Virus record (IMG/VR): IMGVR_UViG_3300020281_000083 | Span: 1 to 32,986 of that record | Direction: 5' to 3' (one strand) | From: a virus | Lineage: Duplodnaviria; Caudoviricetes | DNA: 32,986 nucleotides | In this document: positions 3,841 to 18,114 of the stretch, piece after piece | Layout: every line of letters starts with the position of its first letter | How positions within the stretch are numbered: position 1 is the first letter of the stretch | Notes under the pieces: generated by a model | Database searches by the model: none | What the model was told of the DNA's origin: nothing | The model's input: the letters and a program-made list of their open reading frames with translations, nothing else | Program-made: the position numbers and the translations under genes

Positions 3841-5448
3841 ATGCCAAGTTTATTTAAAGAAATATTTCAACAAGTATTTAGAAGATTTGTAAAAGACAGA
3901 GGTAGATTTCCAACACCAGCAGAAAGAGATGTGCTCCAAGACATAGCTCAGAAAGAAGCTAGAAAACAAATGGAGAATATAGATCCTGTTTTCAAAGGCG
4001 TAGACAAGATGGACCCTGATAAACCTTTTAGAGGTTTCAAACCAAAAGTAGTACCAAAAGTTGAAACAGAAGCAGAGATACTAGCTAGAATGAATAGACA
4101 AAACAAAGAAGCTGTTGAAAGACTTAGAAAGAAAAAACAAGACAGAGAAGATTTTAGTATTGGTGGTGGTGTGATGAAAATTATTAAAGCTCTTGCTAAA
4201 AAAAGTCCTCTACAAAGATATAAAGATTATTTGGCAAGTGTAAAACGAAGAGCACAAACAGAACCAGAAAAACTAGCTCCTGAACTAGGTGCAGTCGCAG
4301 GTGGTGGTATTCTCGTTAACAGACAAATGAAAAGAATTTTAGAAGAGATGAAAGAGCAGGATAAAGAAATTAACTTAGAAAATTTTAAACAAGAATTAGA
4401 AAACGATCCTTTTTATCAAGAGCGTCCTGAACTTAAAGATAAAGTTTTAGAAAAATACGTAGAGACTATGTTTGGTGAAGAAAAAGCAAACGGTGGTCGA
4501 ATAGGTTTTAGTGGTGGCGGTGCAGGTTTACCTGCTGCTACAGGTGGACAAACAGTTTTTATGGGTCCAACTTTACCTGAAGAGGAAGACGAAGAGGAAA
4601 TTGTTGTACAAGACCCTGGTCCAACAGCAGAAGAAATCCCAATGCCAATGTTTGGTAATTTTGAAACCAACGATCCTAAAGAAGCTGCTAAACGTATTTT
4701 AATGGAATACAGTCAAAGATTTGGCACAGGACAACAAAGTGCACCTCTTGGAGGTGGAATAAATTTATTATTCGGTATGGGAGCAAACAGACCAATGGAT
4801 GTTGGTCTAGGTATGCAAAAAGGAAATTTTAGTGGAGGCATAGGTTCTCTTAATGGCAATGTTTCTGCAGGAATTAATTTTAAAAAATCATTTCAAGAAG
4901 GTGGTCCGGTTGATCCAGACAGAAGAACGTTTGTAAAAATTTTAGGAGGACTCGCATCTATTCCTATTCTTGGAAAATTTGTGGCACCTTTAAAACAAGC
5001 AGCACCTGTTATAGCTGAGACAGCAAAAGAAGTTCCAGCTTATTTTTTTAAACTCGTAGATAAAATTAGAAGACTTGGTAAGGATGCACCAGGACTTACA
5101 GACATAGAAAGAACGACAGGTAAGAAATATAAAAATTATGAAATGGTAGAAGATCAAACTACTGGAGATATTATTATTAAAAAACAAAAACAAGGTAGCA
5201 CTATGGTAGGTGATGACATGGTTGAAGGAACAATGTCAGAAGAAGTGCTAGCTTATAGAACACCAAAGAATACTCCAGAAGGTAGGCTGCCAGCAGACTA
5301 CGAAGAGATTACAGTAAAACCAGACTTTGAAGGTAAGATGAGAGATGTTGAAGATGGTTTAGATTCTATGAGTGAAATCTTAGAAGAAGTTGGAGAGACT
5401 CAACTTAAAAAAGCAAGTGGTGGGCTAGCATATATGCTAGGAGAATAA
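3841..5448 (+). CDS. Modular hypothetical protein with repeated xxGG motifs (possible internal virion protein)
   Basis: Long ORF between terL and portal. ATG 3841 is preferred over TTG 3835. Motifs: FSIGGG, KANGGRIGFSGGG, FQEGG, KASGGL. Confidence 0.7.
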   Translation: MPSLFKEIFQQVFRRFVKDRGRFPTPAERDVLQDIAQKEARKQMENIDPVFKGVDKMDPDKPFRGFKPKVVPKVETEAEILARMNRQNKEAVERLRKKKQDREDFSIGGGVMKIIKALAKKSPLQRYKDYLASVKRRAQTEPEKLAPELGAVAGGGILVNRQMKRILEEMKEQDKEINLENFKQELENDPFYQERPELKDKVLEKYVETMFGEEKANGGRIGFSGGGAGLPAATGGQTVFMGPTLPEEEDEEEIVVQDPGPTAEEIPMPMFGNFETNDPKEAAKRILMEYSQRFGTGQQSAPLGGGINLLFGMGANRPMDVGLGMQKGNFSGGIGSLNGNVSAGINFKKSFQEGGPVDPDRRTFVKILGGLASIPILGKFVAPLKQAAPVIAETAKEVPAYFFKLVDKIRRLGKDAPGLTDIERTTGKKYKNYEMVEDQTTGDIIIKKQKQGSTMVGDDMVEGTMSEEVLAYRTPKNTPEGRLPADYEEITVKPDFEGKMRDVEDGLDSMSEILEEVGETQLKKASGGLAYMLGE

Positions 5449-7415
5449 TGAAAATAAAACATTACAACGATGCAATCGACTGGCTCACTCGCCCTAAATT
5501 TAACGGCGGTGGCTCTGTAAAAAACAAAGAAGTCCTACCTAAAAGAAAACCAGAAGAAGAACTTAAGAAAAGAAAAAAGAAAAGATTTGAAAAACTTAAA
5601 GAGTATTTAGAAAACCCAGAAGAGGTAGAAGAAATGTTAGAGCTACAAGATGGTGGTCGGATTCAATTTCAAGCTGGAACTTATCCTAAAACAAATCCTC
5701 AAGATTTACAAAAATTAAGAAATTATCTTAAAAATTTAAAAGAGTCTCCTCAAACGAGCAAGCTTTCTAAACAGTTTAATATTGATAGAAGAACAATTAA
5801 TTTAATTTTAGAAAGAGAATTTCCTGATTTAGTAACAACTCCTGGTCAAAGACAAGCTGCAAACGTAGCAGAAATGAACAAGCTACGAAAAGAAGCTACA
5901 GAGGCAGGTTACGAAAAAATATTAAAAGAGGGGTTTTTAGATGACTATAAACTAAAGATAGAAACACCTTCTGGATCGCCTTTTGCTAAAGGTTTAACAA
6001 ATGCACAATTAGCTAAGAAATATTTTCCAGATGTACCAGAAGCTACAGGGATAGCAAGAGTAGAAAAATTAAATAGATATATTAGAAAAAAATTTCCTGA
6101 TCTTACTTACAAGCCAGGAGAACCAACGTCTGCAACTGCAAAAAGAAGACGAGAGCGTATTATGGAGCAAAGAAAATTTTTGTCTGAAGAAGAAAAAAGA
6201 ATTAGAAAACAACAATCTGCTCAAAAGAAAATTTTAAATAAATATTTTAGTAATAACCCAGAAGAAATTTTAAATAAAAAAGAAGTTAAAAAACTAGTTG
6301 ATGTTAAATTAAAAGATGGAAAATTAGATTTTACTCCTAGATATAAAACAGATAAAGAATACATTGATCTAGCTAAAAAAGGACTATTGTTTGACGAGTA
6401 TGATATTACTCCTGTAAGACTTGAAAAAAGAAATATTGAGTTTCCAATTAATAAAAATGTAACTCCTGCAAAATTTAATCAAGGGTTTATTAAACAAGTA
6501 GATGCTTATTATAAAAAAACAAAGGGGTCTACAGACGCAAATGTTTTAGCCAACAAAAAAATTATTTCTGATTTTTTAGATAGTTATGGTCTTACCTTAG
6601 AAACACGAGGTGAAAGAATAGGTAGTCCTACTAAGTTACCTGCAATCAATAAACAAACAGGAGAGTTACCTAATATTAAAAATACTTTAAAAAAAATGAA
6701 TATTGGTAATTTATCTTTAGACACATATGTACAGCCAAAAACTAAACCCATTGAGGCTTTTGTTAAAAATATTAAAAACGTGGCGCCACAATTAAATGCC
6801 AAGCTTCCAATAATATCTACCATGTACGATGTAGCAAAATCTATTCCTGGTGATATAGGAAAAGCAAAATATTTATCAGCTGGTTTTAAAACTTTAGGTT
6901 TAGCTGTCGCTCCTTATGTTGCCTACACAACTTATCAAGATGTTATGGCAGGGAAAAATTTAGTTGAAGCACTAGAAAGAAATATAATTGGTACAGATAT
7001 TATAGGTGGCACAAAAGATATTTTAGCCATGACTCCAGAAGAAAGAGAAGCTAGAGCAAAAGTTAAACAAGAGCAAATAGCAGAATTAAATATAGACATG
7101 CCTACAGGTTTTGGTTTTATAGAAGCACCACCTGTACAAACAGATATGGCTTTAGAAGAAGCAAAACAAAAACTTGATGCTGCTAAACAAAGAGTTGCAA
7201 AAGAAAGAGCTGAAGATGAAGCTGGTGTTGCAGCTATAAGAAGACAAGCTCTTGATAAAGTGATAGATGCTGCTACTGGTAACAGAACAACAGCTATGAA
7301 ATTAGCCGGTGGTGGACTATTAAAGCAAGCAGGTAAACGATCTGGGCCACCCCCTGAAAAGGGACCAGGAGGCTTGGCTTCGTTAGAAGACTATGCTAGA
7401 ACAATGATGGAGTAA
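5448..7415 (+). CDS. Modular hypothetical protein with xxGG motifs and a Lys-rich central region
   Basis: 655 aa, TAATG-coupled. Motifs: KFNGGG, LQDGGRI, LAGGGL, GPGGL. Confidence 0.7.
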   Translation: MKIKHYNDAIDWLTRPKFNGGGSVKNKEVLPKRKPEEELKKRKKKRFEKLKEYLENPEEVEEMLELQDGGRIQFQAGTYPKTNPQDLQKLRNYLKNLKESPQTSKLSKQFNIDRRTINLILEREFPDLVTTPGQRQAANVAEMNKLRKEATEAGYEKILKEGFLDDYKLKIETPSGSPFAKGLTNAQLAKKYFPDVPEATGIARVEKLNRYIRKKFPDLTYKPGEPTSATAKRRRERIMEQRKFLSEEEKRIRKQQSAQKKILNKYFSNNPEEILNKKEVKKLVDVKLKDGKLDFTPRYKTDKEYIDLAKKGLLFDEYDITPVRLEKRNIEFPINKNVTPAKFNQGFIKQVDAYYKKTKGSTDANVLANKKIISDFLDSYGLTLETRGERIGSPTKLPAINKQTGELPNIKNTLKKMNIGNLSLDTYVQPKTKPIEAFVKNIKNVAPQLNAKLPIISTMYDVAKSIPGDIGKAKYLSAGFKTLGLAVAPYVAYTTYQDVMAGKNLVEALERNIIGTDIIGGTKDILAMTPEEREARAKVKQEQIAELNIDMPTGFGFIEAPPVQTDMALEEAKQKLDAAKQRVAKERAEDEAGVAAIRRQALDKVIDAATGNRTTAMKLAGGGLLKQAGKRSGPPPEKGPGGLASLEDYARTMME

Positions 7416-7418
7416 TAA

Positions 7419-9863
7419 ATGGCAGATATAGAAAAAGGACTCCCGACTGAAGTACGTACTGAGATTAAAGTCCCAGGCGAGGATATTGAAGTCAAAGAGG
7501 AGATTCAAGAAAAAGGACCAATAGAAGTTACACCCGAAGAAGACGGCGGTGCAACGATTGATTTTGAACCAGGTTCAATAAACATACCTGGCACAGAATC
7601 TCATTTTGACAATTTAGCAGATCTCTTACCTGATGATGTTTTAGGACCACTCGGTAGTGAACTAAAAGCAGATTACATGGACTACAAGATGTCCAGAAAA
7701 GATTGGGAGAAAAGTTACACAGATGGTCTTGACTTATTAGGTTTCAAATATGAAAATAGAACGGAACCGTTTCAAGGAGCTTCTGGTGCAACGCACCCTG
7801 TGTTGGCAGAAGCTGTTACACAGTTTCAAGCCACAGCATACAAAGAGTTATTACCAAGTGACGGTCCAGTAAGAACACAAGTTTTAGGAGATGCAACTCC
7901 ACCAAAACAACAACAAGCTCAACGTGTAAAAGATTTCATGAATTATCAAATTATGGATCAGATGAAAGAGTATGAGCCAGAGTTTGATTCTATGTTGTTT
8001 CACTTACCTCTTGCAGGTTCTACATTTAAAAAAGTTTACTACGATGATTTATTAGGCAGAGCAGTTTCTAAATTTATTCCTGCTGATGATCTAATCGTGC
8101 CTTACACAGCAAACAGTTTAGAAGAAGCAGAGTCTATTATTCACGTTATAAAAATATCTGAAAACGATTTAAGAAAACAACAAGTTGGTGGTTTCTACTC
8201 TGATATAGATTTACCAAAGCCAGCTATTACAGTTAACGACGAAGTTTCTAAAAAAGAAAAAGAATTAGAAGGCACTAAAAAATCTGGAAAACAACAAACA
8301 ATGTATACTCTTTTAGAGTGTCACGTCGATCTAGATTTAGAAGGCTTCGAAGATATTGGTGCGGACGGGGAACCGACTGGCATCAAGCTACCTTACATCG
8401 TAACAGTCGAGGAAGGTAGTCAAACAGTTCTTTCGATAAGAAGGAACTACGCGCCCAATGACCCAAGAAAACAAAGAGTCCAATACTTTGTCCACTTCAA
8501 ATTTCTGCCAGGACTAGGATTCTATGGTTTCGGGTTAATACATATGATTGGCGGATTGAGTAGAACTGCAACAGTTGCTCTCCGCCAATTATTAGATGCA
8601 GGGACATTATCTAATCTACCTGCAGGATTTAAACAAAGAGGTGTAAGAGTTAGAGATGAAGCATCTCCAATACAACCAGGTGAGTTTAAAGATGTGGATG
8701 CACCGGGTGGTAATTTAAAAGAAGCTTTCTATGCTTTACCATACAAAGAACCATCAGCAACTTTATTACAGCTTATGGGTATTGTTGTACAAGCAGGTCA
8801 AAGATTTGCTGCAATATCAGAATTACAAATTGGTGAAGGATCTCAAAATGCAGCTGTAGGAACTACAATGGCTCTTCTTGAAAGAGGATCTAAAGTTATG
8901 TCAGCGATACACAAAAGATTATACAACTCGATGAGAGCTGAGTTTAAATTATTATCTAAAATTATTGCAACATACTTACCACCAAGTTATCCGTATGATG
9001 TTGTAGGTGGTTCAAGATTAATTAAACAAGTAGACTTTGATGACAGAGTAGATATTTTACCTGTTGCAGATCCAAACATTTTTTCCATGTCACAAAGAGT
9101 GACACTAGCGCAAACACAATTACAGCTAGCTACGTCAAATCCACAAGTGCATAACTTGTATAATGCATACAGAAATATGTACGAAGCGATTGGTACGAAA
9201 GATATAGATAAAATTTTACCACCACCAATGCCAGTTGCACCGATGGACCCAAGCAGAGAGCATATTATGGCTTTAGCATTAAAACCATTCCAAGCTTTCC
9301 CTGGTCAAGATCACAGAGCACACATCACAGCACATTTAAATTTTATGTCCACTAACATTGTTAGAAATAATCCTGCTGTTATGGCTTCAATACAAAAAAA
9401 TATTTTAGAACACATAAGTTTAATGGCACAAGAACAAGTAGAATTAGAGTTTAGAGAACAACTTTTACAAATTCCAACGCTGCAACAACAAGCACCTATC
9501 AATCCACAAGTAGCACAACAGCTTCAACTGATAACACAACAAGTAGAAGCTAGAAAAGCTGTGTTAATTGCAGAGATGACTAACGAATTTATGATGGAGG
9601 AGAAGAAAATTACATCACAATTTGACTCTGATCCACTTCTAAAACTAAAAGCAAGAGAAGTTGACTTACGTGCGATGGAAAATGAACGTAAAAAAGACTC
9701 TGACAAGGCTCAACAAGACATTGCAAGAGCAAGATTAATGCAACAAGGTGAGATTGCAGAGGATAAAATGGAGCAAAACGAAAAATTAGCGAAGTTAAGA
9801 GCCGGAGTTAGCCTTGCAAAGGCTGATAAACCAGGTATAACTGCTATTGAAGTAGAAGAATAA
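7419..9863 (+). CDS. Portal protein (P22-like, long coiled-coil C-terminus)
   Basis: 814 aa after terL. Motifs HPVLAEAVTQFQA, GSTFKKVYYD, GFYGFGL, LRQLLDAG and a Gln-rich C-terminal helix. Confidence 0.88.
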   Translation: MADIEKGLPTEVRTEIKVPGEDIEVKEEIQEKGPIEVTPEEDGGATIDFEPGSINIPGTESHFDNLADLLPDDVLGPLGSELKADYMDYKMSRKDWEKSYTDGLDLLGFKYENRTEPFQGASGATHPVLAEAVTQFQATAYKELLPSDGPVRTQVLGDATPPKQQQAQRVKDFMNYQIMDQMKEYEPEFDSMLFHLPLAGSTFKKVYYDDLLGRAVSKFIPADDLIVPYTANSLEEAESIIHVIKISENDLRKQQVGGFYSDIDLPKPAITVNDEVSKKEKELEGTKKSGKQQTMYTLLECHVDLDLEGFEDIGADGEPTGIKLPYIVTVEEGSQTVLSIRRNYAPNDPRKQRVQYFVHFKFLPGLGFYGFGLIHMIGGLSRTATVALRQLLDAGTLSNLPAGFKQRGVRVRDEASPIQPGEFKDVDAPGGNLKEAFYALPYKEPSATLLQLMGIVVQAGQRFAAISELQIGEGSQNAAVGTTMALLERGSKVMSAIHKRLYNSMRAEFKLLSKIIATYLPPSYPYDVVGGSRLIKQVDFDDRVDILPVADPNIFSMSQRVTLAQTQLQLATSNPQVHNLYNAYRNMYEAIGTKDIDKILPPPMPVAPMDPSREHIMALALKPFQAFPGQDHRAHITAHLNFMSTNIVRNNPAVMASIQKNILEHISLMAQEQVELEFREQLLQIPTLQQQAPINPQVAQQLQLITQQVEARKAVLIAEMTNEFMMEEKKITSQFDSDPLLKLKAREVDLRAMENERKKDSDKAQQDIARARLMQQGEIAEDKMEQNEKLAKLRAGVSLAKADKPGITAIEVEE

Positions 9864-10018
9864 TGCCACTAAATGAAAAAGGCCGTAAAATTATGAAATC
9901 CATGAAGGAACAATACGGTAAAAAGCGTGGCGAAACAGTTTTTTACGCTTCTTTAAACAAAGGTGTTATAAAAGGCGTAGAAAAAAAGAAAAAAAGGAGC
10001 AAAAATGCAAAAACTTGA
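9863..10018 (+). CDS. Small basic protein, 51 aa (not in ORF track)
   Basis: TAATG overlap with the portal stop. MPLNEKGRKIMKSMKEQYGKKRGETVFYASLNKGVIKGVEKKKKRSKNAKT. It fills the gap exactly. Confidence 0.75.
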   Translation: MPLNEKGRKIMKSMKEQYGKKRGETVFYASLNKGVIKGVEKKKKRSKNAKT

Positions 10019-10187
10019 TAAAATTAAAGTTGGTACAGTTCCAGAACAACAAGTTGAAGTAGATCCTAGATCTAAAACAACTGCTGACCAGGCTTTTAAC
10101 TATATTGGTACAGGAAAACCTGAGTTAGAAGTACAAGGTCAAGGTGCTGTAAGACCAGACAAGAGAAGAAAATCAAAGGCGTACTAA
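10005..10187 (+). CDS. Small hypothetical protein
   Basis: 60 aa, AGGAG RBS, TAATG coupling to the next gene. Confidence 0.75.
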   Translation: MQKLDKIKVGTVPEQQVEVDPRSKTTADQAFNYIGTGKPELEVQGQGAVRPDKRRKSKAY

Positions 10188-10576
10188 TGGCTTGGTTCAG
10201 TTTAGCAAAAATCGCTATGCAAGCTGGCGCAAAGATATATTCTAATCGTCAGAAAACAAAAATGGCGATGTCGGATGCACAATTAATGCATGCAGAGCGT
10301 ATGGCCCGAGGAGAGGAAGCTTACCAAGGCAAATTGTTGGAAGCTAGACAATCTGACTGGAAAGACGAATTTGTATTGATAATTTTGTCGGCGCCGATTA
10401 TAGTGTTAGCTTGGGCAGTTCTAAGTGACGACCCAACTGCGATGGAGAAGGTAAAATTATTCTTTGAATATTTTTCCACACTTCCGAGCTGGTTCACGAA
10501 TTTATGGATCCTTGTCGTGGCGAGCATTTTTGGTATTAAGGGGACACAAATATTTAGAAACGGAGGCAAAAAATAA
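10187..10576 (+). CDS. Putative holin (3TM/GTA-type-like) membrane protein
   Basis: SDWKDE followed by two hydrophobic segments (FVLIILSAPIIVLAWAVL; WFTNLWILVVASIFGIKG) and a basic C-terminus. Confidence 0.65.
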   Translation: MAWFSLAKIAMQAGAKIYSNRQKTKMAMSDAQLMHAERMARGEEAYQGKLLEARQSDWKDEFVLIILSAPIIVLAWAVLSDDPTAMEKVKLFFEYFSTLPSWFTNLWILVVASIFGIKGTQIFRNGGKK

Positions 10577-10800
10577 TGCGTAATGATTATCAAATTAGAC
10601 CTAGGTTTGATAAAGGAAGTAAAGACCCTGTCGGTAAAAACAAAAAAGATAAAAGAATTCATAGTGGAGAGTTTGAGTCAAGATTTATACCTAATAAAAT
10701 GGGGGGCATGGATGAGGTAAAGGTTCCAAAAAAATTATCTCTAGAAGAAAGAATTGTTAAAAAAATAAAAGAAAGATCCAAAAAGGAGGAAAAAAAGTAA
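10576..10800 (+). CDS. Small basic protein
   Basis: 74 aa, TAATG-coupled on both sides. Confidence 0.7.
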   Translation: MRNDYQIRPRFDKGSKDPVGKNKKDKRIHSGEFESRFIPNKMGGMDEVKVPKKLSLEERIVKKIKERSKKEEKK

Positions 10801-10982
10801 TGGTAAACAGATTGTATAACAAACAGGTATCTCCAAAAGGATACATGAAAGGCGGAAGAATTAAGAAAATGGGTGGCGGTTCGCTAAAACCTGTTGATCC
10901 TAAAACGCAAAAGGGTCTATCTAAACTTCCAAAAAAAGTTAGAAACAAAATGGGCTACATGAAAAAAGGTGGTAAAGTCTAA
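10800..10982 (+). CDS. Small basic protein with three xxGG motifs
   Basis: GYMKGGRI, KMGGGSL, GYMKKGGKV. TAATG-coupled. Confidence 0.75.
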   Translation: MVNRLYNKQVSPKGYMKGGRIKKMGGGSLKPVDPKTQKGLSKLPKKVRNKMGYMKKGGKV

Positions 10983-11164
10983 TGGTACTAGGAGTAGGAA
11001 AAGCGTTAAAAGGATTTGGTAAAGCTCTATCTAAGAAAAAAACTGAGCCAGCAACTAAAGAATTTTATGACACAGTTCCACCTCATAAAGACCCACGTAT
11101 GACTGGTCCTAAATATAAAAAATATTTAGAAGGTTTAAGAAAATCAACGGAGAAGAAAAAGTAA
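10982..11164 (+). CDS. Small basic protein
   Basis: 60 aa, TAATG-coupled on both sides. Confidence 0.7.
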   Translation: MVLGVGKALKGFGKALSKKKTEPATKEFYDTVPPHKDPRMTGPKYKKYLEGLRKSTEKKK

Positions 11165-11637
11165 TGACAAAACTTTGTCCTAGAGGAAAAGCGGCAGCGA
11201 AAAGAAAATTTCGTGTGTACCCCTCAGCATATGCTAACGCATACGCTAGCAAAATATGTGCGGGCAAAATAAAAGATCCGTCTGGTGTAAAAAGAAAAGA
11301 CTTCAGAGGACCTAAACCATCTAAAGCTATGGGTGGTAGAATTTATAAAGCTAACGGTGGTGAAATAAATAGAAAAGATAGAATCGATAGAATCAATAAA
11401 ATAAGAAGTGATCAGATGAGAAGAGAAGGTCCTACGATTGTGCCTGGTACAAAAGAAAGAGGTCTATTAAAATCTAGTAAGTCAGGTGGTGCGCCTAGAA
11501 GAGGAAAAGGTAGAAAAAAAATGATGGGTGGTGGTCTAATGGCTGCAACTGAAAGATTAAGAAGACAAGGATATGGAAAAGGTGGTGGTGTCTGTATCAG
11601 AGGAATGAATAGAGACGCCGTCGGAAAAAATTCGTAG
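11164..11637 (+). CDS. Basic protein with YPSAYAN domain (DUF5872-like) and xxGG motifs
   Basis: N-terminal KLCPRGKAAAKRKFRVYPSAYANAYASKIC. The family name is from recollection. Confidence 0.65.
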   Translation: MTKLCPRGKAAAKRKFRVYPSAYANAYASKICAGKIKDPSGVKRKDFRGPKPSKAMGGRIYKANGGEINRKDRIDRINKIRSDQMRREGPTIVPGTKERGLLKSSKSGGAPRRGKGRKKMMGGGLMAATERLRRQGYGKGGGVCIRGMNRDAVGKNS

Positions 11638-11641
11638 TGCA

Positions 11642-12088
11642 ATGGCTGGATTAAAAACATGGTTCGATCAAAAATGGGTAGATATTGGGAGCAAGCGAAA
11701 AGATGGATCGTTTGCAAAATGTGGCCGTTCAAAACAGAAGAAGGATGCGAAGAGGAAGTATCCAAAATGCGTGCCTCTAGCGAAAGCGAGAAGGATGACA
11801 GAAGGGCAGAGAAGATCTGCCGTTGCCAGGAAACGGGCAGCTGCCAATGTGGGACCTAAACCTACAAACGTAAAAACATTTGCAAAAAGAAAAAGAGCAG
11901 CTAGAGGTGGTAGAATGTCACCAAGCAGTAACAAGCCAAATCCAAAAATGAATTCAATGATGAAACAAGCTCAAAGAGATTACACAGGTAGTTTTGTTTC
12001 AGGAAGTTTAGGTGGTGTTGACGTAGGAAATAAATCTTACAAAAAATTTTATTCTAACCCAGGCTATAGAATGCCTAAGATAATATGA
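11642..12088 (+). CDS. Basic phage protein (WFxxKWVDI...CGR...YPKCVP)
   Basis: 148 aa, Lys/Arg-rich, with a motif commonly seen in phage head clusters. Confidence 0.7.
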   Translation: MAGLKTWFDQKWVDIGSKRKDGSFAKCGRSKQKKDAKRKYPKCVPLAKARRMTEGQRRSAVARKRAAANVGPKPTNVKTFAKRKRAARGGRMSPSSNKPNPKMNSMMKQAQRDYTGSFVSGSLGGVDVGNKSYKKFYSNPGYRMPKII

Positions 12089-12393
12089 GAAACGATTTTC
12101 AGATGAGAGAAAGATTTGCTAAGGGGACAATGCCCCCTAGAAATAAAAAGAACTTTAGACCTACAAAGTCTGGAGCAGGCATGACTCAAGCCGGTGTCAA
12201 AGCCTACAGAAGATTAAATCCCGGCTCTAAACTAAAAACAGCGGTGACTGGAAAAGTGAAGCCAGGATCTAAAGCTGCCAAACGTAGAAAATCATTCTGC
12301 GCAAGATCACTAGGACAAATGAAAAAATTCCCTAAAGCAGCAAAAGATCCAAACTCAAGACTTAGACAGGCACGCAGAAGATGGAAGTGCTAA
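12085..12393 (+). CDS. Basic phage protein (DUF6321-like)
   Basis: RRKSFCARS...DPNSRL...RRWKC C-terminus. ATGA overlap with the previous gene. Confidence 0.7.
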   Translation: MRNDFQMRERFAKGTMPPRNKKNFRPTKSGAGMTQAGVKAYRRLNPGSKLKTAVTGKVKPGSKAAKRRKSFCARSLGQMKKFPKAAKDPNSRLRQARRRWKC

Positions 12394-12681
12394 ATGACAA
12401 AAAATAGAGATCCCAAAGTAGGGACAGGTAAAAAACCAAAAGGCTCTGGGAGGAGATTATATACTGATGAAAATCCTAGAGATACTGTATCGATCAAGTT
12501 TGCGACCCCTTCAGATGCTAGGGCAACTGTGGCAAAAGTTAAACGAATCAGCAAGCCCTTTGCGAGAAAAATACAAATCCTTACGGTCGGTGAGCAAAGA
12601 GCGAAGGTTATGGGTAAGAGAGAGGTGGCGAGCATATTTAAAAGAGGTAAAGATGCGATCAGAAAAAACAAGAAAGTTTAA
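12394..12681 (+). CDS. Basic hypothetical protein
   Basis: 95 aa with an RLYTDENP motif. Starts immediately after the previous stop. Confidence 0.7.
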   Translation: MTKNRDPKVGTGKKPKGSGRRLYTDENPRDTVSIKFATPSDARATVAKVKRISKPFARKIQILTVGEQRAKVMGKREVASIFKRGKDAIRKNKKV

Positions 12682-15599: not shown

Positions 15600-16511
15600 A
15601 TGGCAATATCACGATCACAACTAGTCAAAGAACTAGAGCCAGGATTGAACGCCCTGTTCGGCCTGGAATATAAAAGGTATGAAAATCAGCATGCTGAGAT
15701 TTATACTACTGAAACTTCTGACAGAGCTTTTGAAGAAGAAGTAATGTTAAGTGGTTTCGCAAACGCACAAGTGAAAGCTGAAGGTGCAGGCGTGTCTTTT
15801 GACGAAGCACAAGAAACTTTCACGGCTAGATATACTCACGAGACAGTAGCTTTAGCATTCGCAATCACAGAAGAAGCTATCGAAGATAACCTCTACGATA
15901 GACTTGCTGCTAGATACACGAAAGCTTTGGCAAGATCGATGAGTAATGCAAAACAAGTTAAAGCTGTTGACCCATTAGTAAATGGTCTACCAGGTGTAGG
16001 CACATTTAAATCGGGCGACGGTGTAGCTTTATTTGCAACTAACCACCCTACAGTAGCGGGTACATTTAAAAACACGCTTACTGTGCAAGCTGACCTTAAT
16101 GAAACTTCATTAGAGCAGTCATTAATTGACATCGCTAAAATGACAGATGAAAGAGGTCTAAGAATTGCAGCTAGAGGTGTGAAAATGATTGTTCCTTCGG
16201 AAAATCAATTCACAGCTGAGAGATTGATGAAATCTCAAGGTAGAACTGGAACAGCTGACAATGATATTAACGCAATCGTATCTATGGGTATGGTTCCTCA
16301 AGGTTATAGAGTGAACAACTACCTAACAGATACAGACTCGTTCTATATCTTGACAGACGTGCCAAACGGCATGAAAATGTTCAACAGAGCTCCATTAACA
16401 ACTGCAATGGAAGGTGATTTCGATACTGGAAACGTAAGATACAAAGCTAGAGAAAGATACTCATTTGGTGTATCTGACCCTAGAGGTATATTCGGCGTAG
16501 AAGGTGCGTAA
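15600..16511 (+). CDS. Major capsid protein
   Basis: MAISRSQLVKELEPGLNALFG...DGVALFATNHP...DFDTGNVRYKARERYSFGVSDPRG. Doubled AGGAG RBS, followed by a strong terminator. Confidence 0.92.
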   Translation: MAISRSQLVKELEPGLNALFGLEYKRYENQHAEIYTTETSDRAFEEEVMLSGFANAQVKAEGAGVSFDEAQETFTARYTHETVALAFAITEEAIEDNLYDRLAARYTKALARSMSNAKQVKAVDPLVNGLPGVGTFKSGDGVALFATNHPTVAGTFKNTLTVQADLNETSLEQSLIDIAKMTDERGLRIAARGVKMIVPSENQFTAERLMKSQGRTGTADNDINAIVSMGMVPQGYRVNNYLTDTDSFYILTDVPNGMKMFNRAPLTTAMEGDFDTGNVRYKARERYSFGVSDPRGIFGVEGA

Positions 16512-16520
16512 TAACTAATT

Positions 16521-16548
16521 AAAAAGGGGGCTTCGGCCCCCTTTTTTT
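16521..16548 (+). terminator. Rho-independent terminator with cUUCGg loop
   Basis: AAAAAGGGGGC-TTCG-GCCCCCTTTTTTT immediately after the capsid gene. Confidence 0.92.
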
Positions 16549-16568: not shown

Positions 16569-16829
16569 ATGAAAACATTTCGCGTACAGATAAGAGCATA
16601 TGGCTACTACGCTGACTTCGAACTTGCATCCGAAGACAGCTCAGAAGCTTTTGAAAATGCACTAGTTGACAAACTGGGAGAAAATGCTATAGTATGGGAA
16701 AAAGATGGATTTAGTAATAAATCTAAAATATGGATAACCTACGAGGAGACCATTGATGCAAATACAAGTCAGAGACCTTTACAAACAGAAGAGAAGTCTC
16801 GAGACAGAATGGGCGGTGCATCAGCGTGA
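16569..16829 (+). CDS. Small hypothetical protein
   Basis: 86-aa acidic ORF with a purine-rich upstream sequence. Confidence 0.65.
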   Translation: MKTFRVQIRAYGYYADFELASEDSSEAFENALVDKLGENAIVWEKDGFSNKSKIWITYEETIDANTSQRPLQTEEKSRDRMGGASA

Positions 16830-16974
16830 TAACCAAAGGTATACTTTGGACATGGTAAGAATCGACAACAAAATAAGAGAAGTTGTCAGCGCTATTAAGC
16901 AAGAAGAAGCTAGAATAGCAAGCCATGCTAATAAAATAGAAGATGCTGCGCCAGAAGTTTCAGTAGCTACTTAG
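16756..16974 (+). CDS. Small coiled-coil hypothetical protein
   Basis: GAGGAG RBS before ATG 16756. Overlaps the 3' end of the previous ORF. Confidence 0.7.
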   Translation: MQIQVRDLYKQKRSLETEWAVHQRDNQRYTLDMVRIDNKIREVVSAIKQEEARIASHANKIEDAAPEVSVAT

Positions 16975-17021
16975 TAAAAAGCTACATCTTGGACAAATAT
17001 CAAACCAAATTACAGGCTCTC

Positions 17022-17050
17022 TTGCACTCTTGAAAAAATAAGAGTATAAC
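17022..17050 (+). promoter_or_regulatory. Sigma70-type promoter with an inverted repeat spanning the spacer
   Basis: TTGCAC(17022-27)-17-TATAAC(17045-50), with ACTCTT-N8-AAGAGT at 17026-17045. Confidence 0.6.
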
Positions 17051-17056
17051 TAACCC

Positions 17057-17130
17057 ACTATACAATTATAAATTGATGCATAGACGCGTATAGTCGACGG
17101 CCTAGAGACTGTGTATCAAAAACTAGGAGG
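17057..17130 (+). ncRNA. Putative structured 5' leader RNA (pseudoknot)
   Basis: Stem 17073-83/17109-19 with G-U pairs. ACTATAC 17057-63 is complementary to loop GTATAGT 17088-94. Confidence 0.55.
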
Positions 17131-17138
17131 ATATAATT

Positions 17139-18083
17139 ATGGCAAGAACTAACTTTTCGGGACCAATTAACGTTGGCCGAATTCAAACAAACACAGGATC
17201 AGATATTTCTGAAAATGTAAGAAACGTTGCATTCGTAGAATGTCATGCTTCTTTCCCTGTAAACCACAGTAACTTTACTGTAACAACTGATGCTGACAAA
17301 TTAGCTGTGACTGGCTCTAATGGAGCTGCTACAACTTCTGTTACATTAGTAGACGCTACTCAAAACGTACCAGGAATAACTTCTGATGGTGGTTTTGAAG
17401 CTGCTTCTGTAATTACTTTAACATCTGCTGGTAATGACTCTGCAAGAACTGCAACTATTACTGGAACTGATGTTTTAGATAATACACAAACGGAAGATTT
17501 AACAATGGCTAACGCTGATGTTGCAACTTCAACTAAAACTTTCAAAACTGTAAGTTCTATTACTATTGATGGTGGTGGTACTGCTGGAACATTATCAGTA
17601 GGCGTTATTGAAACTGGATTGATTTCAGTTGTGTGTAGATCGTTATTTAACGAATACCCACTTGGTCAATCTTCAACAACAACTGATAAAAACTTAGCGA
17701 ACAATATCGTAATTCCTAAATTTTCTAGAATTAACGATATCAGATTTGTAGTTAATGAAGCTTTCGATACGGCTGGATTTGACGTACAGATTGGTGCTAA
17801 CGTTGCACAAGCATTAGGATCTATGACTAACAGTTTAGATCTTGATTACTTTGCAGGTGATGCAGACAACGATGTAAAAGCCGTTGCTTCTCACCACATA
17901 CCAACTGGTATGGACCAAACAGTTGCTCAGATGAAAAACTGTCTGAACGTTTCAGACGATGATGCATCTGGTTACGAGATGGATAAAGTAGTTGTTATTT
18001 CTGCTAAAACAGATGACGCTTTAACTGCTGGAGAAGCAGTATTAAACGTTTACTGGACACAGCAAATTAATAACACTAACTAA
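17139..18083 (+). CDS. Putative virion structural protein
   Basis: 314 aa, strong AGGAGG RBS, MARTNFSGPI start, Thr/Ala/Gly-rich. Confidence 0.7.
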   Translation: MARTNFSGPINVGRIQTNTGSDISENVRNVAFVECHASFPVNHSNFTVTTDADKLAVTGSNGAATTSVTLVDATQNVPGITSDGGFEAASVITLTSAGNDSARTATITGTDVLDNTQTEDLTMANADVATSTKTFKTVSSITIDGGGTAGTLSVGVIETGLISVVCRSLFNEYPLGQSSTTTDKNLANNIVIPKFSRINDIRFVVNEAFDTAGFDVQIGANVAQALGSMTNSLDLDYFAGDADNDVKAVASHHIPTGMDQTVAQMKNCLNVSDDDASGYEMDKVVVISAKTDDALTAGEAVLNVYWTQQINNTN

Positions 18084-18094
18084 TAAATAATTAT

Positions 18095-18114
18095 TGTGGG
18101 GCTTCGGCCCCACA
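18095..18114 (+). terminator. cUUCGg hairpin (weak terminator or stabilising hairpin)
   Basis: TGTGGGGC-TTCG-GCCCCACA with no clear U-tract. Confidence 0.55.

Follow-up and report, generated by a model that had tools for sequence, protein, structure and literature searches.

In autogenous translational operators such as the T4 gene 32 pseudoknot and the ribosomal-protein leaders alpha/S4 and rpsO/S15, a pseudoknotted leader occupies the ribosome-binding site of a gene whose product binds nucleic acid and is needed in fixed proportion to a partner. A comparable secondary structure is known from the flaviviral xrRNAs, in which a three-way junction is joined by a pseudoknot to the 5' end and by pairing of a loop with the strand past the closing stem. 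To our knowledge, post-transcriptional control of capsid accessory proteins has been little described in marine double-stranded DNA phages, and a literature search agreed. The closest described RNA is the Mu-gpT-DE motif, for which Weinberg et al. 2017 is reportedly the source. Rfam holds it as RF03012, a model of 53 positions with the type 'Gene; sRNA' and function unknown.

Here we analyse a leader at positions 17057-17138 of a viral window (the whole stretch of DNA studied, 32,986 nt), for which an earlier note had proposed a novel pseudoknotted cis-regulatory RNA able to sequester the Shine-Dalgarno (SD) sequence. With Mu-gpT-DE it shares a locus after a gpT-type capsid gene and directly before a gene for a protein beginning MAxTxFxGP, ending at the SD or AUG. 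It also shares the order of an outer stem, an unpaired A, a C-G-closed inner stem, GAC, 8-9 nt, GA and the outer stem again, found in the window at 17083-17109. Like the autogenous operators it is a pseudoknotted leader at a ribosome-binding site, but the protein encoded downstream is acidic and the leader has no sequence relation to theirs. Compared in two dimensions with the xrRNAs, it differs in that its 5' strand pairs with a loop via an AU-rich linker, its structure ends at a ribosome-binding site, and its short forms are knotless.

The locus and the downstream cement gene

The window is pelagiphage DNA of the HTVC023P/027P type and covers the packaging and structural genes. A PHROG search found terminase, portal, GroES and gpT-type major capsid genes, and the capsid protein is 83.5% identical to that of HTVC027P and 76.3% identical to that of HTVC023P, both Pelagibacter phages. 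The gene order is capsid gene, terminator-like hairpin, two small ORFs, predicted promoter, leader and a 314-aa ORF beginning MARTNFSGP. The features flanking the leader are:

15600-16511, + strand: major capsid protein gene, Mu gpT-type (PHROG 371 major head, E 2e-26)
16521-16546, + strand: GC hairpin and U tract 3' of the capsid gene, a predicted terminator (11-bp stem, -18.6 kcal/mol)
17022-17050, + strand: predicted sigma70-type promoter (-35 TTGCAC at 17022-27, -10 TATAAC at 17045-50, 17-nt gap)
17139-18083, + strand: capsid cement/decoration protein gene, 314 aa (N-arm MAxTxFxGP, jelly-roll body, beta-sandwich insert at about residues 49-158)
18095-18114, + strand: GC hairpin 3' of the cement gene, lacking a U tract (-16.3 kcal/mol)

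A scanner assigned the hairpin at 16521-16546 to the - strand. The promoter was recognised by eye and is missing from the output of a consensus scanner for the window; its boxes, 17 nt apart, are conserved in homologues and predict a +1 at 17057, in keeping with the start near this position that had been proposed. Among 253 leaders built like that of the window, the -10 box lies 6-9 nt from the first base of the 5'-most helix (P1) in 234. The stretch that separates the -35 box from the -10 box is filled by a 5-bp inverted repeat (17027-17044), which homologues keep only in part.

The two small ORFs that lie 3' of the capsid terminator and 5' of the promoter overlap one another (16569-16829 and 16756-16974, + strand), and the second belongs to PHROG 36395, of unknown function. 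As both occur in HTVC027P-like phages and are missing in HTVC023P, they are not universal partners of the leader. A conserved 6-bp hairpin (16963-16985, + strand) spans the stop codon of the second ORF just 5' of the promoter; its pattern has 147 matches in the collected loci, with a few variants that preserve pairing, and no match was seen outside the HTVC027P-like subgroup. Elsewhere, small, very basic ORFs cluster at 9860-12400 between the portal and GroES genes, several with KGG/GG motifs, and in HTVC023P purM is annotated two genes beyond the cement gene (L216, 5649-6293). Fourteen RNA runs match part of the stretch; the four examined were assembled contigs, so that start, strand and level are not readable from them, and the higher RNA-contig depth over the leader may come from many relatives with a conserved core.

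Direct searches gave the downstream protein no name: phmmer against the PDB found no match, Foldseek returned poor whole-chain matches, and PHROGs and the Atlas offered no annotation. Its structural model (pLDDT 65) resembles the cements of KHP40 (Z 7.5), Pam1 (6.9) and GP4 (6.7), all middling scores. The protein is also linked (hhalign P 94%) to a 151-aa sister family that matches Pam1 cement (E 1.6e-4) and KHP30 gp15 (E 0.004), and the top three structures for the model of that family are Pam1 (Z 12.1, rmsd 2.4, 114 aligned), KHP40 (11.6) and GP4 (10.7). A cement annotation is present in the record of phage DSL-LC04. The jelly-roll body and N-terminal arm are shared with the Pam1, KHP30-KHP40 and GP4 cements, whereas the inserted beta-sandwich is extra. 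In the sections consulted of PMC9698820, the Pam1, KHP30 and GP4 cements are described as trimers on threefold axes and the N-terminal loop of Pam1 cement as binding the capsid E-loop; the KHP40 cement structure entry is likewise titled a trimer, and unrelated cements can be dimers according to the part of PMC12002296 consulted. We infer that the window protein would be a homotrimer on the capsid threefold axes.

The downstream proteins are very diverse: BLAST sorts the 208 examined into 23 clusters, with lengths of 62-316 aa and MAxTxFxGP as the sole common part. The cement locus is hypervariable across L001-L462, with one N-arm and bodies that include forms of 62-75 aa, and the gene looks like a swappable capsid-surface display cassette. 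Their pI values are strongly acidic (4.25 for the window protein, median 4.3, above 7 in 3/239), and 63 of the 239 have neither K nor R in their first 14 residues. GC hairpins like that at 18095-18114 follow in L216 (about 4605-4625) and L264 (about 2350-2378); the window's is possibly a 3' stabiliser of the cement part of a longer transcript.

Three interlocked helices and a GAC-triplet junction

The leader contains the following elements:

17057-17063, + strand: 5' strand of helix P1, at the predicted transcript start, partner 17088-94 in the arm A loop (7/7 Watson-Crick)
17073-17083, + strand: 5' strand of P2, the closing stem of the junction, partner 17109-19 (11 bp: 9 Watson-Crick and 2 G-U)
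17083-17085, + strand: GAC triplet 1 (an unpaired A between a G paired to C17109 and a C paired to G17096)
17086-17095, + strand: arm A, closed by G17086-C17095, its loop bearing the P1 3' strand (17088-94)
17096-17098, + strand: GAC triplet 2 (its C2-G3 pair is C17098-G17107)
17099-17106, + strand: arm B loop, bearing the P3 5' strand 17101-05 (8 nt long in 242/296 leaders)
17107-17109, + strand: GAC triplet 3 (seen in parsed leaders and ungapped cores)
17123-17127, + strand: 3' strand of P3, partner 17101-05 (5/5 Watson-Crick), with a 3-nt overlap with the SD AGGAGG at 17125-30

All three pairings had been claimed from the letters and hold as described: a perfect helix between the 5' end and the loop (P1), an 11-bp stem (P2), and a helix between the loop and the SD region (P3). 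Their strands alternate along the RNA as A B A' C B' C', an interlocked arrangement that none of 3000 dinucleotide shuffles reproduced and that recurred in one of 1646 other 85-nt segments of the contig. The nested folding energy is unremarkable (z -0.33), as expected because the fold is a pseudoknot. In the nearest-neighbour model P3 alone contributes -4.1 kcal/mol, and the junction is energetically costly (-7.8 against -10.5 for P2 alone). An alternative helix, 17088-95/17107-14, was considered as a switch partner; it reaches -4.8 kcal/mol in the window but, by eye, is broken in L129 and L156, and was dismissed as a conserved feature.

One claim did not survive. The purine-rich linkers, called unpaired, consist mostly of paired junction nucleotides (C17085-G17096, G17086-C17095, C17098-G17107). 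These linkers form the conserved core of the RNA, a pseudo-threefold three-way junction with pairs G1-C3, C1-G2 and C2-G3 and one unpaired A per strand. The parser used to collect leaders (296 unique) scored pairs and not the middle letter of each triplet, and the three middle letters are nevertheless AAA in 291/296; of the other five, three are mis-parsed leaders that do have the GAC triad and two are without the core. C1-G2 is invariant (296/296 parsed leaders). G1-C3 is replaced in 11 of the 296, by A-U in 7, U-A in 2 and G-U in 2, and U-A takes the place of C2-G3 in two lineages that differ in P1, L236 (by the parser) and L201 (by eye), so that compensatory changes are found at two of the three junction pairs. 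The first arm A pair varies among 37 cores (UA 13, GC 10, AU 9, CG 5), and the triplets are spaced by 13 nt in 241/296 and by 11 nt in 242/296. In L260 and L284 arm B is a true hairpin, and RNAfold, unaided, predicts the symmetric junction there. The invariant junction bases could simply serve folding.

Covariation supports every helix

Extra loci were gathered via the downstream protein and four capsid proteins, in order to avoid selection on the RNA. A sequence-only alignment of close relatives, with one row per class from 149 leaders (35 rows), had 95.7% of its cells paired, a statistic that ignores phylogeny, and 0/500 shuffles reached its level of covariation, again with no phylogenetic correction. 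Both-sided changes occur at 4/7 pairs of P1, 11/11 of P2 and 2/5 of P3. The P1 changes within this subfamily come from few rows, compensatory variants being seen in HTVC027P and L129; those in P3 are U-A to A-U and G-C to A-U.

Across distant classes, the arm A loop pairs with its own 5' strand in 50/50 distinct cases, against 39% of 2344 cross-pairings, and arm B pairs with its own tail in 35/38, against 23% of 1306 cross-pairings (phylogeny ignored in both comparisons). A set of 37 ungapped cores, 35 of them elaborated and 2 minimal, has 94.6% of its cells paired, a covariation score of 0.88 against 0.22 when shuffled, and both-sided change at 9/9 pairs of P2. Compensatory changes are found in P1, P2 and P3 alike, including the helix between the 5' end and the loop. 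Among 97 distinct P2 stems, G-U outnumbers A-C by 36 to 5, and this excess favours the + strand, as had been suggested from the two G-U pairs of the window. We regard the structure as almost certainly real.

Three architectures on one core, and the relation to Mu-gpT-DE

Parsing with an RF03012-like core pattern succeeded in 291 leaders of all forms, of which 253 are elaborated like that of the window (248 with both knots), 36 are minimal and 2 pair the AUG. In the elaborated form, P3 overlaps the SD by at least 2 bases in 154 of the 248 and by 1 base in 20, and lies within 3 nt of it in 53 (227 together); the SD is more than 3 nt beyond P3 in 8, and 13 have no SD match. The 36 minimal leaders all cover the SD with the closing stem itself, and in the two AUG-pairing leaders, L260 and L284, the closing stem pairs with the AUG and the SD sits in the arm B loop. 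Indeed, the structure overlaps or abuts the initiation site in 38/38 short forms. The distance from GAC3 to the AUG is bimodal (11-13 or 24-41 nt). The minimal form is without either pseudoknot (P1 12/25 with its own partner against 47% in cross-pairings; P3 0/19), and a -10 box is not nearby in 16 of the 38 short-form leaders.

An Infernal search of the window leader against Rfam, a check proposed with the original claim, gave no match at the gathering score and none relevant at E<=10. It fell below the 49-bit threshold of RF03012, with no match to that model even at E<=10, and Alpha_RBS, which had the best E-value, was rejected at 13 bits against a gathering score of 38. RF03012 does match CRP-901 and CRP-902, both at 72 bits (2/20 loci), and 8/16 short-form leaders tested, against 0/4 elaborated leaders from the same clades. 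The minimal form is Mu-gpT-DE itself, and the window RNA, outside RF03012 by score, is nonetheless an elaborated variant of the same core. The structure that Rfam draws for Mu-gpT-DE already has G1-C3 and C1-G2, but C2-G3 is unpaired and the threefold junction is not drawn. Further, in Mu-gpT-DE the SD itself forms one side, the 3' strand, of a short outer stem and there are no flanking pseudoknots, whereas the window leader has the 11-bp P2 together with P1 and P3. The claim of novelty does not hold unqualified: the leader has no relevant Rfam match at gathering score or E<=10, but its locus and core are those of RF03012.

Covariance models link the forms weakly, so their kinship rests on the locus and the parsed core. 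A model from 35 close relatives (R1) reaches HTVC023P at 30 bits and finds 0 short forms among 22 loci. A second model (R2), whose alignment contained two short-form rows so that the cross-test is not independent, reaches 4 short forms weakly (22, 17, 17 and 13 bits), misses all the others including CRP-902, and has two 16-bit matches away from the locus. Minimal and elaborated forms replace one another behind capsids up to 99% identical, and 10/23 clusters of downstream proteins include both.

The present analysis contributes the threefold junction, a third architecture and the swap of forms behind near-identical capsids. Neither the knotted form nor the GAC triad was found described in a literature search; the Weinberg 2017 supplement and the CaCoFold figure of PMC7657543 lay outside that search and could draw C2-G3 or a knot. 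The rows consulted of a supplementary table of PMC7657543 give two extra covariations for Mu-gpT-DE, the portion consulted of the main text of PMC5737381 does not mention gpT, and two core strings and the motif name are absent from six supplements of PMC10690425, three further files being outside the search. An orphan Rfam motif can now be assigned to the capsid cement gene, with a unifying core and a likely role in controlling initiation in cis instead of acting as an sRNA, and is extended to HTVC023P-type pelagiphages and to many freshwater relatives missed by the Rfam model.

Distribution and genomic context

The knotted leader is conserved, and shows compensating changes, in hundreds of ocean and lake phages. 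The 31-nt centre of the leader occurs exactly in at least 120 viral stretches, with 96 distinct flanking contexts among the matches listed, and the leader is present in the cultured phages HTVC023P, HTVC027P, CRP-901/902 and DSL-LC04. Two pattern scans used the triad alone. They returned 108 unique viral matches, of which 101 have P2 and a cement-type N-terminus; the remaining 7 comprise 4 that are the same leader by eye, 1 chance-like match and 2 with neither feature. The cement-gene context is nearly exclusive among viral triad matches. The scans also gave 117 metagenome matches: 53 with both features, 2 of the family by eye, 2 chance-like and 60 with neither.

Absence of the leader goes with absence of the gene. 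Six of six loci with no cement gene (L251, L257, L259, L262, L266 and L269, probably one clade) have no leader, the next gene directly following the capsid gene; one loose pattern match there overlaps the terminator. The proposal that the leader controls the post-capsid structural genes is accordingly narrowed: a cis leader at the SD is retained, with the cement gene specifically as its target. Exceptions exist on both sides, as the leaders of L474 and L525 precede N-termini without FxGP, and the cement-like genes of L202, L218, L302 and L312 have no recognisable triad.

The leader is single-copy in the window and in 3/5 phage genomes where the model found it. Candidate second copies in the window were rejected, as R1 finds one and the weak extra matches are the hairpin 3' of the cement gene. 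No convincing chromosomal copy was found in 151 Pelagibacterales genomes, where the only strong match is a phage contig and two further matches reach 20 bits. Leader-bearing phage contigs lie inside two host assemblies, L467 (G036 contig 15, a Pelagibacterales sample) and L466 (G002 contig 15, alphaproteobacterial), which is consistent with infected cells.

A proposed conditional switch on cement translation and its alternatives

An invariant junction whose exit helix reaches the initiation site in three ways points to translational control of the cement gene in cis, which we consider likely. Our preferred reading is more specific and is held at a little short of an even chance: the leader would be a conditional OFF switch on cement translation, possibly clamped by surplus cement trimer. 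The transcript would start at P1, and the leader, as its covariation shows, folds into the three-way GAC junction tied by two pseudoknots. P3 would be too weak to hold the SD alone, leaving it open until the junction is stabilised; a helix of such low strength suggests that the block is conditional and not permanent. The stabiliser may be a phage structural protein, with the cement trimer as first candidate and the major capsid protein as second. A structural protein as the clamp is a tentative proposal, and cement itself in that role, though our best guess, is rather unlikely. The three conserved N-arms of a cement trimer would match the threefold junction, expanded capsids would titrate trimers away, and cement output from a separate promoter would thereby be coupled to capsid supply. 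We ranked feedback by a structural protein first because cement is probably made from its own promoter, is needed at about 1:1 with the capsid protein, and as a trimer matches the symmetry of the junction.

A bolder version, which we judge rather unlikely as well, is that the GAC triad is a new RNA sensor, its three adenines reading a threefold ligand, most simply the N-arms of the unassembled cement trimer. If so, a phage group that is among the most widespread in aquatic habitats would count spare capsid cement by symmetry matching and shut off the message, and Mu-gpT-DE, the double pseudoknot and the AUG-pairing form would be three output modules on one core. If a trimer does read a threefold RNA junction, this would be a new and compact way of recognising RNA and might serve as an engineering part. 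With a length of about 70 nt, and with natural minimal and knotted versions in cultured phages, the element allows its trigger to be tested directly.

Several observations count against the preferred reading. The acidic pI of the cements argues against binding of the leader by the gene product, and very diverse cement bodies beside an invariant RNA core weigh against cement feedback. C1-G2 never varies, and C2-G3 does so in two lineages only. Also unfavourable are the elaborated leaders with a displaced SD (8/248) or no SD match (13/248), the N-termini without FxGP in L474 and L525, and the triad-less cement-like genes.

The alternative that survives best, which we judge rather unlikely, is a ligand-free structural leader, whose self-folding knot buries the 5' end at +1 and which gates the SD, if at all, in a fixed or kinetic manner. 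Together with the 3' hairpin it could stabilise the cement message against RppH/RNase E or block RNase J, like flaviviral xrRNA. The position of P1, which begins no more than 3 nt from the predicted start in 234/253, speaks for it, as do the two-dimensional resemblance to xrRNA (a three-way junction with 5'-end and downstream pseudoknots), the GC hairpin without a U tract that closes the cement gene, and a need for cement at capsid-level amounts. TIGR00649, which we take to be the RNase J family, matches 5/5 Pelagibacterales genomes, 3 of them over the cut-off. Against this, the minimal form keeps the invariant core without either pseudoknot, and each of the three architectures leads to the SD or AUG, for which a pure stabiliser would have no need.

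Translational riboswitches are compact pseudoknots that end at the SD and have invariant junction bases. These traits recur here, so the adenines might line a pocket for a small molecule or metal ion whose binding closes P3 over the SD; a ligand that does not depend on the host would also explain an invariant core before very divergent proteins. Such a riboswitch is nonetheless decidedly unlikely, in that there is a single gene context and the gene is structural, no convincing copy was found in the 151 Pelagibacterales genomes, only about nine bases are conserved, and no Rfam riboswitch matches. The earlier suggestions of a metabolite riboswitch or a ribozyme are thus left unsupported by the gene context and the host genomes.

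Processing of the cement message at its 5' end by self-cleavage is very improbable. A compact double pseudoknot with invariant core bases would suit a ribozyme, and the 16/38 short forms without a nearby -10 box might need processing, but no Rfam ribozyme model matches, the helix order is unlike that of HDV-like, twister or pistol folds, and the core tolerates three architectures and begins at the predicted +1. The chance is just as slight for a trans-acting small RNA or virion-associated RNA, as the Rfam 'sRNA' label implies: the leader does have its own promoter, but no terminator follows it, GAC3 keeps its bimodal distance from the AUG, and the RF03012 model itself ends in SD and AUG. Least credible is a site in the DNA immediately 3' of the promoter, where a transcription regulator would bind the GAC triplets as direct repeats. 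The prevailing triplet spacing would fit this reading, but it is largely refuted by compensatory changes, which affect all the helices and the triplets themselves, by the G-U excess, and by spacing that grows by whole hairpins. Likenesses to k-turns, hammerheads, tmRNA tags and guanidine-III were set aside, the required bases not being conserved.

A different leader was seen in L202 (about 5445-5510), where the cement-like gene begins MTTHFTSGV and the capsid is 92% identical to that of the window. It has two hairpins, with the SD in the second loop and no GAC triad, and is possibly a fourth way of covering the SD.
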